Source: Minisyncoccota bacterium (GTDB taxonomy: Bacteria; Patescibacteriota; Minisyncoccia; SW-4-49-11). Taken from it: a stretch of DNA of 64,000 nucleotides. The stretch's first letter is position 1; every line of letters begins with the position of its first letter. A program made the translations under genes and the position numbers. The stretch covers positions 2,532-66,531 of the forward strand of contig JAULZW010000006.1 in assembly GCA_032117235.1 (NCBI GenBank), given 5' to 3'. The notes below the pieces were generated by a model, which had not been told where the DNA came from, did no database searches, and saw only the letters and a list, made by a program, of their open reading frames with translations. Below, piece by piece: positions 12,237-60,739 of this stretch.

Positions 12237-12377
12237 CTGTGTATCTCTAGAATTATAGGCTATATATAATGTAAATTATTTATAATTATAAATCTATAAT
12301 CACTTTATACCTTTTGAATAAGAATAAGTTGCAAAATTATGAAAATTTAGGTATACTAAAATAGTTAATTTAATTAT

Positions 12378-12468
12378 GGAGAGATGGCTGAGCTGGTCGA
12401 AAGCACCACACTGCTAACGTGGCATAGGGTAAAACTTATCAAGGGTTCGAATCCCTTTCTCTCCGCCA
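12378..12468 (+). tRNA. tRNA-Ser (anticodon GCT), type II with a long variable arm and an encoded CCA
   Basis: Acceptor GGAGAGA/TCTCTCC, anticodon loop CTGCTAA, variable arm ATAGG..CTTAT, T-arm AGGG-TTCGAAT-CCCT, discriminator G, then CCA. Confidence 0.9.
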
Positions 12469-12496
12469 AAATTAAGAATAGGGATAATATCCCGAC

Positions 12497-12648
12497 CTTT
12501 AATTTATGGGAGTTAGTAAAAAGGGATTCGAATCCAGGGAAGGGGGCGGGAAACGGGAGTTTCCCGTGGAGGATGTATTGAAACCGAGTGGTTTCAAGGA
12601 GCAAATCCCATTTGCGACAGGTTCGTAATCCCTTTCTCTCCGCCAAAA
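12497..12648 (+). repeat. Degenerate tandem copy of tRNA-Ser (pseudo-tRNA) whose middle is occupied by module A of the GC-rich hairpin element. It ends in a near-exact 28-nt repeat of the tRNA-Ser 3' end.
   Basis: The upstream context and 5' segment ('taatttatgggag') echo the true tRNA ('taattatggagag'). 12620-12648 ('ggttcgtaatccctttctctccgccaaaa') repeats the true 3' end with one indel. 12548-12618 is module A. Confidence 0.5.
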
Positions 12649-14224: not shown

Positions 14225-16183
14225 ATGAAACTTATAAATAAAATTAATAGACTAATTGGAGTGGCTTTTGTTTTTTATGTATGTCTGCCTTTTGTAGCTC
14301 AAGCTAATAGCTTAAGCTTTCCTAATGGAATTTTATTAAAATCTACTAATAATCCAAAGGTTTATTATATAGAAAATGGTAAAAAAAGACCAATTGAGTC
14401 ACCCAATATGCTGAAGTCTCAGTTTAGATGGGATGATTTAGTAGTGAGCACTCCTGTAGAATTAGATTCTATACCAATTGGGGAGGAGATGACATATAGA
14501 GATGGGTCTTTATTATCCAACCGTGGAGCAGTATATGTAATTTCAGATGGTGCGCGCAGACCAGTAGAGTCAGCAAATACATTTTTACAAAAAGGCTATA
14601 AATGGAGTAATGTAATAGCAGTTAGTGATGCTGAGTTGGCCCCTCATCCACAAGGAGCTATGTTGGTGGCTAGTGAAAAACATCCAAATGGTAGTTTATT
14701 GGTAAGACCGGGAGGTGAGGTTTATGTGATTAAAAATGGGCAGAGAAGATATATTCCAAGTCCACTTATATTTCAAGCAAGATATCGTTGGGAGTCTCTG
14801 ATTGATGTCTCAGAGTTATATCTGAATACGTATCCACAAGGAGCTAATGAATTTTATCCCGATGGGTTGCTAATATCTAGTGCCACGGGAGTATTTATGA
14901 TGCAGAATAATGTAAGACAGCCTATTACTTCTCCTGCAGTTTTTGAGAGCTATGGCCTTAATTGGGGACAGGTGAGACGGGCTACAGATTTTGAATTATC
15001 TATTATCCCAGAATCTGGAGCTTTTAATAGGGTGAAACAATATGAAGGAGGCTCTATTATTGGAGCTTCTAGTGGTCCTGTATATCGTGTGGCTAATGAT
15101 GGAAGTTTGCAATATATTTCCAGTCCTAAAATTTTTGCAAGTCAAGGATATAGTTGGGATTCCGTACTAAGATTACCAGACAGTGTTGTAGATAAATATA
15201 CAAAAGCAGGAAGAGTTGGATTTGGTAATGGAACTTTAATTTCTTATAATGGAGGAGTTTATTGGATTGAAAATGGATTAAAAAGACCAGTACCAAGTCC
15301 CGCAATATTTAATGCCAGAGGATTTAGATGGAATAATGTAACTGCGGTTTCGGAGGATGAATTTAATGCCAATGCTATGGGGCAGGCTTTATCTGATATC
15401 CAATCTGCTAGTATAGATGGGTATATCATTCCAGCTACTAGCGGTAGAACTGCTCGAGAACAGCACTTAGCTCGAGATTGTAATGAAACAAGTGCTGATC
15501 ATTATGGACGAGCTTTAACTTCAGCTTCAGCACAAAATGGATTATTAACTACTGGAGGAGCCTTTGCTTTAACTTGTCCAGCAGGAAGTCTTAATTCAAG
15601 TTATGCTCCATTTAGTGTTGATGAAGAGAAATATTATATTACTATGCGTTGGAATTATGTAAGATGGTATGAGGCTACTAGTACTTTGACTCAGAATATT
15701 TCTGTTACTTCGGATAGAATTTTACTAACATCAGTAGCTGATTTTCCTAATACTGGTTGGGTTATAATTAATGGAGAGATTATTGCCTATAGTGGAAAGG
15801 ATGGTAATAGTTTAATAGTATCTCAGCGAGGTGTAGATAGTCCAGCTGTGGCAGCAAGTCCACGAGCTCATAATTCAGGAAGTACAGTACAAGAAGTATA
15901 TGAATATAGGTCAGATACTTGGCGCGGTAGAACTCGTACAGCTGAAATTTCAAACACATCTCAATCTAAAAACTGGCATCGGGGAAGAAAAGTTTTAGTA
16001 ACCAATCCATCCAATGGTAGAATGTTGGTAGCATCTATTATGGAATCAGGACCTGCTATATTTACAAATCGTGTGTCCGGGCTGTCTCCAGAAGCTATGT
16101 TAGAATTAGGTATATCTACTGACTCTAATTTAGAGTATGGGTTCTTAATTGATCAATCAATACCAGTTGGACCATTACAATAA
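14225..16183 (+). CDS. Secreted repeat protein (about six copies of a 65-70-aa module) with a C-terminal RlpA-like double-psi beta-barrel domain
   Basis: Signal peptide present. Repeats follow the pattern 'DGSLL...VYxIxNGxKRPIxSPxxFxxxGYxWxxV'. The C-terminal 'KVLVTNPSNGRMLVASIMESGPAIFTNRVSGLSPEAMLELG' resembles an RlpA/DPBB domain. Confidence 0.55.
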   Translation: MKLINKINRLIGVAFVFYVCLPFVAQANSLSFPNGILLKSTNNPKVYYIENGKKRPIESPNMLKSQFRWDDLVVSTPVELDSIPIGEEMTYRDGSLLSNRGAVYVISDGARRPVESANTFLQKGYKWSNVIAVSDAELAPHPQGAMLVASEKHPNGSLLVRPGGEVYVIKNGQRRYIPSPLIFQARYRWESLIDVSELYLNTYPQGANEFYPDGLLISSATGVFMMQNNVRQPITSPAVFESYGLNWGQVRRATDFELSIIPESGAFNRVKQYEGGSIIGASSGPVYRVANDGSLQYISSPKIFASQGYSWDSVLRLPDSVVDKYTKAGRVGFGNGTLISYNGGVYWIENGLKRPVPSPAIFNARGFRWNNVTAVSEDEFNANAMGQALSDIQSASIDGYIIPATSGRTAREQHLARDCNETSADHYGRALTSASAQNGLLTTGGAFALTCPAGSLNSSYAPFSVDEEKYYITMRWNYVRWYEATSTLTQNISVTSDRILLTSVADFPNTGWVIINGEIIAYSGKDGNSLIVSQRGVDSPAVAASPRAHNSGSTVQEVYEYRSDTWRGRTRTAEISNTSQSKNWHRGRKVLVTNPSNGRMLVASIMESGPAIFTNRVSGLSPEAMLELGISTDSNLEYGFLIDQSIPVGPLQ

Positions 16184-17778
16184 TGAGACAAAAAAATATT
16201 TTTTTTATTTGCCTAATAGCATTGTTATTTATAGGGTATAATCCTATAATTAGTTTTGCTAGTACTCCTAATATACAAGCTCGTAATACTTGGGCAACAG
16301 ATAGTGATAATAATTTTACCAATAATATTTGGCCACCTAATGTCAATAATACTTTTCAAGTAAAGCGAATTCTAATTCATGATACAGCCATACCTAGTTT
16401 TAATAGTGATTCTCTAGATTCTAGGCAAATGACGAGATCTATTTTTATTATGCATGCCAGAGATAATGGTTGGGGAGATATTGGGTATAATTATCTTATT
16501 GCTCGGGACGGTACAGTTTATCAGGGAAGAATGGGACAAAATGGAGTAAGAGGTGCTCATCTTTATGTTAATCGAACAGGAGATAATTTTAATTATCAAA
16601 GTGTCGGTATCGCTTTATTAGGTCAATATGGTAGTGGTTATTCAACAGCACCAGAAGCTATGAAACAATCTTTAGCTAAATTATCTGGATGGCTTAGCTC
16701 AGTAAACAGTGTTTCTCCGACTGATTTTGTAAATGAGCCAATTTGGAATTTTTATACCAAGGGATATACCTCTACTTATAACGGATTTAGAGTTTCTGAC
16801 CATGGTGAGATTGAAGCTGGAAATGGAGATACTAATATGGTAGATATGTCTTGGCTTAGAAATAGAGCTCAAGAATGGAAACAATATTATGACAACTCAG
16901 TTTATCGTACAGAAAATGGAAGGATTTATAATATTCAAAACGGTATAAAAACTCCTACAGGTAATATTGGTGGTAAAACTATAATCAATATTAGTTCAAC
17001 AGAAATTAATTTGTTCCCAGATACTACCGATATTAGAACTTTTCCTGACGGATCATTATTAAGAACAGATACTGGAGTTGGATATTTGGAAAATGGAAGT
17101 ATTAGACCTATTATAAATCCAGATATTTTTAATTCTAGATTTAATTGGAAGGATGTAATAGATATTACAAGAGCAGAGTGGAACTCTTATCCATTAGCTT
17201 CAGCTCTAACTTTTAGAGAGGGTATGTTGGTTAGGGAGAGGAGTAATTCAGATGTATATGTAATTAGTAATCAGCAAAGAAGACATATTCCGTCTCCAGT
17301 TACATTTGAGAATTTGGGTTATCAATGGATTAATATAACTACTATTGCAGATGGGACTTTAGATATTTCTCATCCAAAGGGAGTTCCAATGCAATCTAGT
17401 CCATATCCTGATGGAACATTATTGGTGAATAGAGATAATCCTACCGGGATTGAGTTGTTAGAAAATGGTAAAAGAAGACCAATTCCAAGCCCTGAAGTAT
17501 TTGATACTCAATATAATTATAAAGATCTAGTTCGTGTATCGGGAAGTGAATGGAATTCTTATCCACAAGGATCTGCTGTATATTTTCGGGATGGAGTTAT
17601 TCTGAGAGCATCAGGCAGAGGAGAGGTATATATAATGTCTAATGGTAAAAAAAGATATGTCACTTCACCTTTTGTTTTTGAAAGATTAGGATATAAATGG
17701 AATAATATAAAAGTAGTATCTTCAGCTGGTTTGGATAGTGTTCCTTCGGGTAGTCCAATCACAGAAGATATGTTATAA
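16183..17778 (+). CDS. N-acetylmuramoyl-L-alanine amidase (amidase_2 / PGRP domain) fused to the same repeat module
   Basis: Signal peptide present. 'IHDTA...FIMHARDNGWGDIGYNYLIARDGTVYQGR...GAHLYVNRTGDN...SVGIALLGQY' matches the amidase_2/PGRP pattern. It is followed by five or six copies of the 65-70-aa repeat. Confidence 0.7.
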   Translation: MRQKNIFFICLIALLFIGYNPIISFASTPNIQARNTWATDSDNNFTNNIWPPNVNNTFQVKRILIHDTAIPSFNSDSLDSRQMTRSIFIMHARDNGWGDIGYNYLIARDGTVYQGRMGQNGVRGAHLYVNRTGDNFNYQSVGIALLGQYGSGYSTAPEAMKQSLAKLSGWLSSVNSVSPTDFVNEPIWNFYTKGYTSTYNGFRVSDHGEIEAGNGDTNMVDMSWLRNRAQEWKQYYDNSVYRTENGRIYNIQNGIKTPTGNIGGKTIINISSTEINLFPDTTDIRTFPDGSLLRTDTGVGYLENGSIRPIINPDIFNSRFNWKDVIDITRAEWNSYPLASALTFREGMLVRERSNSDVYVISNQQRRHIPSPVTFENLGYQWINITTIADGTLDISHPKGVPMQSSPYPDGTLLVNRDNPTGIELLENGKRRPIPSPEVFDTQYNYKDLVRVSGSEWNSYPQGSAVYFRDGVILRASGRGEVYIMSNGKKRYVTSPFVFERLGYKWNNIKVVSSAGLDSVPSGSPITEDML

Positions 17779-17826
17779 TATTTATCTTGCAAAAAAGTTT
17801 AGTTTATGATATACTTATACTTAAAT

Positions 17827-17900
17827 GCGCGTGTAGCTCAGCTGGTTAGAGCGCTACACTGATAATGTAGAGGTCCCATGTTCAAGTCATGGCATGCGCA
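17827..17900 (+). tRNA. tRNA-Ile (anticodon GAT)
   Basis: GCGCGTG acceptor, D-arm GCTC/GAGC, anticodon loop CTGATAA, T-arm CCATG-TTCAAGT-CATGG. Confidence 0.9.
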
Positions 17901-17920
17901 CACTTTAGATAGAATAAATG

Positions 17921-50000: not shown

Positions 50001-50225
50001 TTGAAATATATGAAAAAAACAGAGCAATCATTTAAGCAGATTTTCAGTGAATTAGAGACACTTACTAAAGAATTGGAAAATAATGATGTGATTGAGTTAG
50101 AGAAGGGAGTTCAGTTATTTGAAAAAGGTATGGAGCTCTCTAAAATATGTCGATCAAAACTAAGTATAATGGAGAATAAAATTATAAATATAAAGAATAA
50201 ATATGCTAATAATGAAAAAGATTAA
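50001..50225 (+). CDS. xseB: Exodeoxyribonuclease VII small subunit-like protein
   Basis: 74 aa. 'SFKQIFSELETLTKELENNDV.ELEKGVQLFEKGMELSKICRSKL' aligns with the XseB pattern. Confidence 0.55.
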   Translation: MKYMKKTEQSFKQIFSELETLTKELENNDVIELEKGVQLFEKGMELSKICRSKLSIMENKIINIKNKYANNEKD

Positions 50226-52026
50226 ATATAATTTGCTTTTACTGTCTATAATATTTATATTACCAAATATTGCGTTTGCTGACACAGGTGATAAAATTGT
50301 ATACACTAACTGTGAGATTCAGTCTTATGAGGAACAATTAGCTGATAATTTTTATTTAGTAGATAATGTTGATGCTAACCAAGGTTGTGTTGTTAAGTCT
50401 ATTCCAGATCAAAGAATTCACCTAACTTCTAATGATTCAAATTATGCAGATCAATGGGCATTAAAAAATGTAGGCCAATCTATTCTAGGTCAATCTGGAC
50501 TATCTGGTGTTGATGTTGACTTTACCAATGCCTATCCTAAAATATCTAATATAGCTAAAGGTAATACTAAAATTGCCGTTATTGATACAGGTGTAACTAT
50601 TATACCAGAGCTTTCTGGTCAGATTTTGTCTGGTTATAATTTTATTAATAATTCTAACAATGCTAATGATGATAATGGTCATGGCACATTTATCTCTAGT
50701 ATTATTGCCTCTAAAGTTAATAACTCAATAGGTATTGCTGGGATTAACGATAGAGTCAATATTTTGCCACTAAAAGTTTTAGACTCAGAGGGTAAAGGTT
50801 TTTTGTCAGATTTAATCAAAGCAATTCAGTATTCCATAGATCAAAATGTATCTATTATTAATCTTAGTCTAGCTTCTACTTCATTTGACCCTATTCTTAA
50901 TAATATTATTGAATCGGCTTATCAAAGAGGGGTAATTGTTGTGGCTGCTGCTGGTAATAGTGGTATTAATATTACATCGCCTAATGTTTCCCCTCTAAAT
51001 AATGATGGTAATAAAAATTGGGTTGTTGGTGTTGGTGCAATTGATAATAAAGGTAATAGACCAAATTACTCAAATTATGGGCTAGGGGTAGATGTTGTAG
51101 TGCCGGGAGATAAAATTTTAGGTTATAATAACAATAATGTTTTAGAATATAGGTCTGGAACTTCTATGGCAGCGGCTATAATGACTGGGGTTTTATCAGC
51201 TTGGAGAGATTATTATGGAGAATTAAATACTGACGAGGCTCATAATCTTATTAAAAGCTCAAGTAAGTCTTTAAGATTGATTTCTATGGATAGTGTTATG
51301 ACAAGACGAAATTATCCAAATGGTTCTCTAATAAGAACTTCTAATTCAGGTGTTTATCTTATAAAACAAGGAGTCAAGAGGCCAATTATTGATCCAATTA
51401 TATTCTTGTCCTATTATTATAAATGGCAAGATATTTTAGTGGTGAGCGATGTTAGTTTCAACTCTATTCCTACGGGAGATGCTTTACCTTTAAGAGAAGG
51501 ATTTTTGATTTCTGATAAAGATAAGGTATATGTTATAGAGCAGGGTATGAAAAGACCTATTGCTTCACCAGAAGTGTTTTTAGGGTTAGGATATAAATGG
51601 GGTAATATATCTAGTGCTTCTAATTCAGTATTGGATTTACATCCTACAGGCTCAATTATATCTGATATAAATCAAATCCCAAATGGTAGTGTAGTATTTT
51701 CTGAAGGTACAGGTGCTTATTTAATAGAGAATGGTAAAAAACTACCTTTCTCTACACCATATACTTATCTTTCTAGGTATAGCTGGAGTGATTTAATTAA
51801 GATTAGACTGACTTTGTTAAACTCTTTTCCTACAGCCAATGAAGTGTATCCTCAAGAAGGTTCAATTATTAGAGATGATGGAGCTGTGTATTGGATAGAA
51901 AATAATACTAAGCGTCCATTCGCATCTCCACAGGCTTTCCTTGGGATGGGTTTGTCTTGGGGTAGAGTTATTTATCCTCCTTTGACTGTGTTGAATAGTT
52001 TGTCTAAAGGTGATATTATACAATAA
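50203..52026 (+). CDS. Secreted subtilisin-like serine protease (S8) with C-terminal copies of the shared 65-70-aa repeat
   Basis: Signal peptide. Catalytic triad contexts 'AVIDTGV', 'HGTFISSIIAS' and 'GTSMAAAIMTG'. Four C-terminal repeats follow, like those in 14225-17778. Confidence 0.8.
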   Translation: MLIMKKIKYNLLLLSIIFILPNIAFADTGDKIVYTNCEIQSYEEQLADNFYLVDNVDANQGCVVKSIPDQRIHLTSNDSNYADQWALKNVGQSILGQSGLSGVDVDFTNAYPKISNIAKGNTKIAVIDTGVTIIPELSGQILSGYNFINNSNNANDDNGHGTFISSIIASKVNNSIGIAGINDRVNILPLKVLDSEGKGFLSDLIKAIQYSIDQNVSIINLSLASTSFDPILNNIIESAYQRGVIVVAAAGNSGINITSPNVSPLNNDGNKNWVVGVGAIDNKGNRPNYSNYGLGVDVVVPGDKILGYNNNNVLEYRSGTSMAAAIMTGVLSAWRDYYGELNTDEAHNLIKSSSKSLRLISMDSVMTRRNYPNGSLIRTSNSGVYLIKQGVKRPIIDPIIFLSYYYKWQDILVVSDVSFNSIPTGDALPLREGFLISDKDKVYVIEQGMKRPIASPEVFLGLGYKWGNISSASNSVLDLHPTGSIISDINQIPNGSVVFSEGTGAYLIENGKKLPFSTPYTYLSRYSWSDLIKIRLTLLNSFPTANEVYPQEGSIIRDDGAVYWIENNTKRPFASPQAFLGMGLSWGRVIYPPLTVLNSLSKGDIIQ

Positions 52027-60385: not shown

Positions 60386-60713
60386 CCAATAAGAATGGTA
60401 ATCGCGCATATCCATTTTATGGTGAGTGAGGAAAGTCTGGACACCTGTTGCTTAAAAACAATAAATGATAGTGGGTAACACCCATCCTTAAGTTTACTTA
60501 AGCGGGATAAGTATCGCAGAGACAAAACATTTGAGTATAACTCATCTAAGGTGAAAAGAGATAAACCCTATCAGGTGCAAGGCCGTGCTTTTCTTAATTG
60601 AAAAGAGTGCCGCCAAGAAAGTGCTGGTAACAGTACTTCAAGATAAATGATTACCTTAAGTATTATTGCTAGACAATATGCTTAAACAGAATCCAGCTTA
60701 TATTCTTTATTGG
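60386..60713 (+). ncRNA. rnpB: RNase P RNA (bacterial type, reduced size)
   Basis: P4 strands 'GAGGAAAGTCTGGAC' and 'ACAGAATCCAGCTTA'. P1 pairs CCAATAAGAATGG with ATTCTTTATTGG. A TATAAT -10 lies at 60371-60376. Confidence 0.8.
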
Positions 60714-60739
60714 GTACTATATATCACCAATATAATAAT

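Follow-up and report, generated by a model that had tools for sequence, protein, structure and literature searches.

An EccB-related tandem repeat module in three predicted secreted proteins of a Minisyncoccota bacterium and its proposed role in cell wall anchoring

The subject of this analysis is a 64,000-nucleotide stretch of DNA from a Minisyncoccota bacterium of the Patescibacteria, or candidate phyla radiation (CPR) (assembly GCA_032117235.1, contig JAULZW010000006.1, positions 2,532 to 66,531), hereafter the window, which encodes three proteins that share a repeat module of approximately 60 amino acids (aa). The first of these, P1 (652 aa; 14225-16183, +), consists of a signal peptide, six EccB-type repeats, a Cys-containing linker, a beta module of the tail-fibre type and a double-psi beta-barrel (DPBB); P2 (531 aa; 16183-17778, +) combines a signal peptide and an Amidase_2 domain with one degenerate and four full repeats; and P3 (607 aa; 50203-52026, +) consists of a signal peptide, a subtilisin and four repeats. 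The original prediction, made from the sequence alone, had recognized the same three open reading frames (ORFs) and an unnamed repeat common to three secreted proteins; the ORF list bears out the coordinates and the strand of each gene, and a hidden Markov model (HMM) of the repeat identifies 6, 4 and 4 full copies, respectively. The N-termini of the three proteins are hydrophobic and end in AQA/N, SFA/S and AFA/D, that is, in an A-x-A-like site, so that on inspection they look like signal peptides; no transmembrane (TM) helix was found in P1, P2 or P3 apart from these N-terminal segments.

The repeat HMM was built first from seed copies and then rebuilt from all copies in the window, and it matches the individual copies across P1, P2 and P3 with E values of 1e-21 to 1e-27. 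The P1 array (14312-15394, +) contains six copies (aa 30-90, 89-148, 151-210, 209-267, 271-330 and 331-390; E 4e-21 to 6e-26 per copy), and the P3 array (51307-52023, +) contains four (aa 369-429, 428-487, 490-549 and 547-607; E 3e-22 to 3e-27). The four copies of P2 (17035-17763, +; aa 285-343, 342-404, 406-467 and 466-527; E ~1e-24 per copy), which follow each other in the order A-B-A-B of the two subtypes described below, are preceded by a degenerate copy with a deleted middle part (16882-17031, +; aa ~234-283) that produces weak, split HMM matches. The resulting count of 14 full copies and one degenerate copy agrees with the initial estimate of roughly 15, but the period is 59-63 aa rather than the 65-70 aa that had been proposed. 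A six-frame HMM scan of the whole window did not reveal any further repeat carriers. The consensus of the repeat is xxxP-DG-sL…VY-I-eNG-KR-I-SP…F…GY-W…V…S…L…P-G, in which G6 is invariant, and P31 and W40 are nearly so.

Two subtypes of the repeat can be distinguished. The odd (A) copies contain 'hP-[DN]-G … S-x-F-x-W' and are shorter by one residue, whereas the even (B) copies contain 'fR-[DE]-G … LGY-x-W'. Among the window copies, identity is greater within the A and B classes than between them (permutation p = 0.003); thus, in P2, the first and third copies are 46% identical and the second and fourth 40%, compared to 25% for the first and second. In 40 contiguous arrays taken from representatives of clusters formed at 50% identity, the mean identity between copies at lags 1, 2, 3 and 4 is 35.6, 44.7, 35.7 and 52.7%, respectively. 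Given that subtypes A and B alternate, the real unit of the array is a pair of about 120 aa.

Searches against named families did not place the module. Single copies match no Pfam family at E <= 10, the named wall-binding repeats (LysM, SH3_3, SPOR, PG_binding_1, CW_binding_1/2, SLH, GW and ChW) included, and when the whole P1, P2 and P3 proteins are used as queries, the repeats match no Pfam family at E <= 1. Homologue searches with short repeat profiles returned four fragments in one case and nothing in another. An HMM of the repeat copies, which the original prediction had proposed to build, likewise gave no Pfam match from the window copies. When 1.84 billion cluster representatives (50% identity) were scanned exhaustively with HMMER, 8,329 repeat carriers were detected at E <= 1e-3, 3,812 at E <= 1e-10 and 750 at E <= 1e-30, with 3 to 17 matched stretches per protein among the matches listed.

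The claim that the module cannot be assigned to a named domain family can nevertheless be revised: the module of ~60 aa is distantly related to the periplasmic repeat domain of EccB, a component of the mycobacterial type VII secretion system (T7SS). Three lines of evidence converge on this relationship, although the two that come from sequence depend on each other in part. First, among 134 representative carriers, 12 are matched by the Pfam EccB model (PF05108) at E <= 1e-4 (best E 8.8e-17). In the P1 orthologue P0203, this model aligns with a single repeat copy (aa 333-389 to profile positions 182-240, E 7.9e-6) at a score of 25.2 bits, under the gathering cutoff of 27, and in P0245 the match spans several copies. 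Second, in a search against all PDB sequences, the five top hits of a profile of 92 diverse copies (A3) were all EccB1 or EccB3 (4kk7, E 5.5e-4; 3x3m, 6.2e-4; 5cyu, 0.02; 6sgy and 6lar, about 0.3, up to 0.33). The alignment covers positions 8-61 of the 62 in the profile, and both the first and the last EccB repeats are matched; in the PDB sequence search, the link is visible only with this diverse profile and not with one built from the window copies.

The third line of evidence is structural. An AlphaFold prediction of the repeat, also suggested initially, was run on P1 and yielded an EccB-like fold. The model, built on an alignment of 46 orthologues, has a mean predicted local distance difference test score (pLDDT) of 85.9 and a predicted template modelling score (pTM) of 0.62, compared to a pLDDT of only 35 for a single-sequence prediction. 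In a Foldseek comparison of this model with the PDB, ranks 1-11 are all occupied by EccB1, EccB3 or EccB5 (E 1.8e-8 to 5e-6, ~400 columns). The Foldseek output comes without query coordinates, and the EccB, DPBB and tail groups of matches were assigned to regions of P1 through the sequence-level results that agree with them. The predicted order of secondary structure elements in each repeat of the P1 model is b-b-b-a-b-a, and the element count is that of the published EccB1 repeats, with four strands and two helices in ~50-57 aa; the EccB1 structure paper describes repeats of ~55 aa, each with a four-stranded sheet and two helices.

The module and the EccB repeats R1-R4 (PF05108; PDB 4KK7, 3X3M, 5CYU, 6SGY and 7NP7) thus share a size of ~55-60 residues and a four-stranded sheet with two helices; both are extracytoplasmic, have paired repeats, and are homologous at a detectable level in sequence and fold. 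The architectures differ. EccB has exactly four repeats that are arranged around a central core, with R1/R4 and R2/R3 flanking it, behind an N-terminal TM helix and inside a T7SS locus, whereas the module forms contiguous tandem arrays of 4-6 copies (up to 17 elsewhere) on secreted hydrolases, without a core domain. The T7SS genes EccC, EccD, MycP and WXG100 are absent among the ten ORFs scanned on both flanks of the P1/P2 locus and both flanks of the P3 locus, which encode an Exo_endo_phos protein, a nitroreductase, folD, mraZ, rsmH, a penicillin-binding protein (PBP), a Mur ligase, gap, a topoisomerase and a glycosyltransferase (the longest ORF in the window is 731 aa). With no TM helix, core domain, T7SS neighbours or PF05108 match, P1, P2 and P3 are not members of the EccB family.

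According to the EccB1 structure paper, the EccB1 repeats pack together into an elongated rigid body, and their ligand is not known. This raises an alternative in which the repeats would be scaffolds or spacers, pairing through hydrophobic helices, as in the periplasmic assembly of EccB, into a rigid stalk or an oligomer by which the catalytic domains are positioned; no wall polymer would be bound. Apart from the packing of the EccB1 repeats, the A-B periodicity, which suggests obligate intramolecular pairing, and the pTM of the whole P1 model, which suggests some fixed inter-domain geometry, are compatible with such a role.

The assignments originally made for the catalytic domains of P2 and P3 are confirmed. 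The Amidase_2 (peptidoglycan recognition protein [PGRP]-type) domain of P2 (16357-16719, +) matches PF01510 over aa 59-179 with E 9.9e-13 (49 bits against a Pfam cutoff of 26) and probably reaches about aa 230; its relatives in the PDB are PGRP and T7 lysozyme, with E values down to 3e-10. The motif IH66DTA provides the first His of the expected Zn ligands (His, His, Cys or Asp) and GY102NYLI the catalytic Tyr, and H207 and D216, which were identified by inspection only and lie outside the HMM alignment, are candidate C-terminal metal ligands. The Peptidase_S8 domain of P3 (50563-51264, +; Pfam E 4.7e-40, 138 bits) retains an intact triad of D128 (DTG), H160 (HGT) and S321 (GTSMA). Both P2, as an Amidase_2, and P3, as a subtilisin, are predicted to be of a working type. 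The best NCBIfam match of the P3 protease domain (50563-51264) is to the T7SS mycosin family TIGR03921 (E 3.8e-41, 141 bits, far under the cutoff of 279 bits), which probably reflects generic S8 similarity. Mycosin (MycP) pairs with EccB in the T7SS, and the presence in P3 of EccB-type repeats together with a mycosin-like subtilisin match is a coincidence worth recording.

The third protein presents a more complicated case. The approximately 50 full-length orthologues of P1 (43-96% identity) contain no Pfam domain, and P1 itself has no SPOR domain detectable with Pfam. Its C-terminus is formed by a double-psi beta-barrel (15884-16180, +; about aa 554-652), which is indicated by Foldseek matches, the order of secondary structure elements and an hhalign comparison. 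In the AlphaFold model, the last ~100 residues follow the order b-b-a-b-b-b-a-b, as in a DPBB, and the local Foldseek match to PA4485 (4avr) has 32% identity and a root-mean-square deviation of 2.4 A over 63 columns (TM-score 0.52, normalised to the target), with further DPBB matches to the fungal loosenin 9ce9, p97-N, kiwellin 4x9u and the designed DPBB 7du6. The P1 sequence matches are far less clear. No DPBB, RlpA or 3D model of Pfam or NCBIfam is matched by the whole of P1, its C-terminal 263 aa or the C-termini of 26 orthologues (E <= 10). Profile searches with full-length P1 or the C-terminus found no significant sequence relatives in the PDB (Runx2 and integrin beta-4, which ranked first, represent noise), and 4avr appeared only with E 1.6. 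An hhalign comparison aligned aa 591-637 of P1 with residues 120-165 of E. coli RlpA (37% identity over 46 columns, probability 52%, pairwise E 1.5e-4), pairing the motifs 'VTNPSNGRMLVASIMESGP' with 'ITNLANGRMIVVRINDRGP' and 'RVSGLS' with 'RVISLS'. The early description of P1 as RlpA/DPBB-like is therefore correct as far as the DPBB fold is concerned, by virtue of the AlphaFold model, Foldseek and the weak hhalign match, whereas the assignment by HMM search, which had been named beforehand as the check on this description, failed.

P1 could alternatively be an active RlpA-type lytic transglycosylase that processes denuded glycan strands together with the amidase P2, such that all three proteins would be enzymes; P1 and P2 overlap by one base, and a tandem model in which an amidase is followed by RlpA has been established for Pseudomonas. 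Beyond the gene arrangement, the DPBB fold with PA4485 as the best match, the 37% identity to the RlpA core and the conserved acidic residue E607 (E or D in the orthologues), which occupies the position of the 'DRGP' Asp, are compatible with this possibility, but that Asp is also kept by the inactive E. coli RlpA. The catalytic Asp is D168 in P. aeruginosa RlpA, and the E. coli protein is inactive because a Ser takes its place. We take the first serine of the E. coli 'ISLS' to be the substituted residue, by comparison with the 'D-L-S' motif of the active enzyme. In the alignment, which has a probability of only 52%, the catalytic Asp corresponds to G619 of P1, a residue that is invariant in 46 of the 46 orthologues, and accordingly P1 is probably not a lytic transglycosylase. 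Considering also that no DPBB_1 HMM is matched and that P2 is missing from 4 of the 10 related loci, we regard an active transglycosylase as highly unlikely, and the interpretation of P1 and P2 as a classic tandem of amidase and lytic transglycosylase was downgraded on account of the Gly at the catalytic position. The description of the three proteins as enzymes therefore stands for the amidase and the subtilisin and was overstated for P1.

The P1 barrel shares the six-stranded topology of the RlpA, PA4485 and expansin-type DPBB (PF03330), but, unlike RlpA, P1 has no HMM match and no SPOR domain, its barrel forming the very C-terminus, and carries an invariant Gly in place of the catalytic Asp (Ser in E. 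coli RlpA). PA4485 is itself a DPBB protein without demonstrated activity (PMC3539698). P1 is thus regarded as a DPBB protein the activity of which is probably non-canonical.

Between the repeats and the barrel, P1 contains a beta module of the phage tail-fibre or baseplate type (15635-15868, +; about aa 471-548, with approximate boundaries). The segment at aa ~486-540 matches baseplate wedge, virion structural and tail-fibre families of PHROGs (E 1.8e-5 to 3e-3), and the P1 model has many local Foldseek matches to tail fibres in BFVD and to tailspike and baseplate proteins in the PDB, which were attributed to this region through their agreement with PHROGs. This is a module of phage tail type within a CPR gene that is chromosomal and syntenic. 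Two near-invariant cysteines, C419 and C451 (window positions 15479-15481 and 15575-15577), are located in the linker that joins the repeat array to this module and may pair as a disulfide after export of P1.

The named carriers of the repeat found in the scan belong to Parcubacteria, Paceibacteria, Minisyncoccia, Berkelbacteria and Yanofskybacteria, all of the CPR/Patescibacteria, or to the related candidate lineage Wirthbacteria; weak or odd exceptions are one metagenome-assembled genome (MAG) labelled 'Gammaproteobacteria' and one Aminicenantaceae MAG. The partner domains were counted with Pfam in those of the 150 best-scoring representatives that are no longer than 1,100 aa, 134 in all; the counts are per family, and some proteins have two. 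This census includes 23 proteins with Amidase_2, 20 with SpoIID, 16 with Peptidase_S8, 5 with Peptidase_M23, 3 with Glucosaminidase, 2 each with CHAP and CAP, and 1 with VanY; Ig, fn3 and cohesin modules are likewise present among the carriers, and others contain SLT, Peptidase_S11, GH18 and staphylococcal-nuclease (SNase) domains. Among the 132 carriers with an initial Met, the N-terminus is hydrophobic in 102. In a group of Parcubacterial proteins (P0205-P0222), a six-copy N-terminal array similar to that of P1 (50-66% identity) is followed by an SNase domain that replaces the DPBB end; such a protein would be a wall-anchored secreted nuclease and could suit the nucleotide scavenging of CPR bacteria.

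In these proteins, a signal peptide is combined with a catalytic domain and with small repeats that vary in number, an architecture that follows the same logic as in hydrolases with LysM, SH3b, SPOR, PG_binding_1, CW_binding_1 and CWB2, and the LysM, SH3b, SPOR and choline-binding hydrolases have the same partners, namely Amidase_2, M23, CHAP, glucosaminidase and SpoIID. Unlike LysM, SH3b, SPOR, PG_binding_1, CW_binding_1 and CWB2, to which it has no sequence match, the module has a different fold, and its binding to the wall is a prediction.

A version of the module is also encoded by phages. The P2 array matches the family profile phrog_9616 with E 1.7e-22, aa 3-111 of the array, that is, one A-B pair, covering profile positions 3-110 of 118, and 19 Streptomyces phage records encode a match that aligns with exactly one A-B pair. 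All the annotated records describe the product as a 'hypothetical protein', and three records have no annotation. In phage Stigma, the gene for gp46 (134 aa; L026:6965-7369) lies just downstream of the genes for minor tail proteins, from which a single small hypothetical gene separates it; aa 74-133 of gp46 align with the repeat profile with an hhalign probability of 98.6%, and the first half of the protein is degenerate. Thus, the phage family resembles the chromosomal module in that its profile of 118 positions is covered by one A-B pair, and differs from it in that the gp46-like proteins are stand-alone, of ~134 aa, with neither a catalytic partner nor an obvious signal peptide. The Streptomyces phages that encode gp46 are large, at ~128 kb, and their hosts are actinobacteria, members of the same phylum as the mycobacteria to which EccB structures among the PDB matches belong. 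A scan of viral contigs found no relatives. Similarity to PlyCB, the cell-wall-binding subunit of the streptococcal phage lysin PlyC, was also considered and was not reproduced; the first 50 matches that Foldseek returned from the PDB for the P1 model do not include it.

The scaffold alternative outlined above has to be weighed against these distributions. A pure spacer leaves unexplained both the strong bias of the repeat towards peptidoglycan hydrolases as partners and the existence of a small stand-alone phage protein of about one pair, and a copy number of 3 to 17 is typical of avidity modules. We therefore consider a purely architectural role of the repeats unlikely.

The genomic neighbourhoods bear on the question of whose cell wall is involved. 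The start codon of P2 overlaps the stop codon of P1 by one base (TAATG), and the synteny nitroreductase – P1 – [P2] – tRNA-Ile – folD – glyA is kept in MAGs of Paceibacteria. P2 follows P1 in six related loci (L001, L002, L004, L005, L007 and L013) and is absent in four (L003, L006, L011 and L014), so that the slot at 16183-17901 shows a presence/absence polymorphism of P2 between P1 and the conserved tRNA-Ile(GAT) gene (17827-17901, +), which bounds this variable slot and is kept in loci with and without P2. P3 comes directly after mraZ, rsmH, ftsI (a PBP) and a Mur ligase, that is, the dcw cluster, with gap next; in a relative, the gene combining S8 and repeats again lies ahead of gap, near ftsZ. 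These genes belong to the core genome of an organism that makes peptidoglycan of its own.

These contexts have to be set against the suggestion in the original prediction that the toolkit could act on the envelope of a host, that is, that the repeats bind the host surface while the amidase, the protease and the DPBB protein attack the host wall in an episymbiotic association. That the named carriers are nearly all CPR lineages, that the arrays are also fused to secreted nucleases and proteases suitable for scavenging, that the Streptomyces phage module adjoins genes for tail proteins, which contact a foreign envelope, and that P1 holds a tail-fibre-type module could all be read in this manner. 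However, the housekeeping synteny in which P1 and P3 reside is conserved (nitroreductase-P1-tRNA-folD-glyA and S8-gap, respectively), peptidoglycan is made by the organism itself, with P3 located after ftsI and a Mur ligase, sets of amidase, SpoIID and M23 enzymes are needed by any walled cell for division, and the window holds no evidence of an episymbiotic lifestyle. Given the housekeeping synteny, the organism's own peptidoglycan genes and the position of P3 after mraZ-rsmH-ftsI-Mur ligase, we find no indication of action on a host envelope and consider a host-directed function distinctly unlikely.

The interpretation that we favour, with somewhat better than even confidence, sees in the module a non-covalent anchor by which proteins exported through Sec are retained on the wall of the cell that makes them, the several A-B pairs conferring avidity. 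LysM, SH3b, SPOR and choline-binding repeats play this role in other bacteria. Under this proposal, the module would be exported through Sec together with its cargo domain and would hold that cargo non-covalently on a polymer of the cell's own wall, either peptidoglycan or an attached glycopolymer, and several copies would add avidity. The cargo would be an amidase, a subtilisin and a DPBB protein in this organism and SpoIID, M23, CHAP, glucosaminidase and nucleases elsewhere, with P1 probably being a non-catalytic or non-canonical glycan-binding DPBB protein that is co-transcribed with the P2 amidase. The repeat anatomy, the homology to the EccB repeat, the partner bias and the synteny are shown, whereas we infer the binding to the wall, the nature of the ligand and the choice of the organism's own wall as the target. 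A role in binding the wall is in keeping with the partner census, which is dominated by peptidoglycan hydrolases, and with the homology to the periplasmic EccB repeat. The presence of a PBP and a Mur ligase, the location of P3 beside the dcw cluster, the conserved core synteny, the hydrophobic N-termini of most carriers and the phage protein that carries the module next to minor tail protein genes also speak for the proposal.

Several observations weigh against this proposal. Of the 8,329 clusters, only 134 of the best-scoring entered the census. The EccB model PF05108 has no match in P1, P2 or P3 themselves at E <= 1 in Pfam, and a profile of the 14 copies from the window alone retrieved neither EccB nor anything else in the PDB or Pfam. 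The repeat arrays are mildly basic, with pI values of 7.0-8.6, which indicates no particular ligand; a strongly basic charge had been considered as a sign of binding to anionic polymers and was dropped in view of these values. Furthermore, according to the EccB1 structure paper, peptidoglycan binding by EccB lacks experimental support, and the periplasmic domain of EccB may work through protein-protein contacts.

Some further features of the window are mentioned here for completeness. Of the 225 positions in the Exo_endo_phos profile, a 177-aa ORF at 12682-13215 matches only 1-117; ~280 nt without coding sequence come after this ORF, which may be truncated or a pseudogene. The mechanically called ORF at 12374-12646 (-) overlaps tRNA-Ser(GCT) at 12378-12468 and is surely spurious. 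A class A RNase P RNA (126 bits) is located at 60386-60717 and abuts an ORF with a TTG start at 60710.

Modular wall hydrolases with binding repeats are already known, as is the fold of the EccB repeat. Our literature searches turned up no account of this repeat in free-standing tandem arrays as a major architecture of CPR bacteria, of the organisation of these arrays in A-B pairs or of single-pair proteins in phages, and no papers on EccB-like proteins, or on EccB in Patescibacteria. Pfam, in its 2025 version, detects the repeat family only through sporadic partial matches to the EccB model, and the present analysis provides a structural and evolutionary identity for a very large unannotated family of 8,329 clusters at 50% identity. 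It also corrects an over-annotation, P1 being RlpA-like yet devoid of the catalytic Asp. The strong association with peptidoglycan hydrolases can be regarded as comparative-genomic support for the idea that the periplasmic repeats of EccB may bind the cell wall. A more far-reaching scenario, which we consider doubtful, is that the EccB-type repeat, as a wall-binding module, is ancient and widespread and has its main home not in the T7SS but in the secreted 'surface-ome' of CPR bacteria, where it would be the general anchor of hydrolases, nucleases and proteases, and that the periplasmic domain of EccB, and perhaps the pairing of EccB with the subtilisin MycP, are derived from wall-anchored secreted enzymes of this kind; P3 itself combines a subtilisin with EccB-type repeats, and its best NCBIfam match, far under the cutoff, is to mycosin. 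If this is true, the CPR fusions would provide a long-missing clue to function, namely that EccB tethers the T7SS to peptidoglycan. For the CPR bacteria themselves, this repeat family appears to be a main route by which Paceibacteria and other lineages decorate their surface with enzymes.

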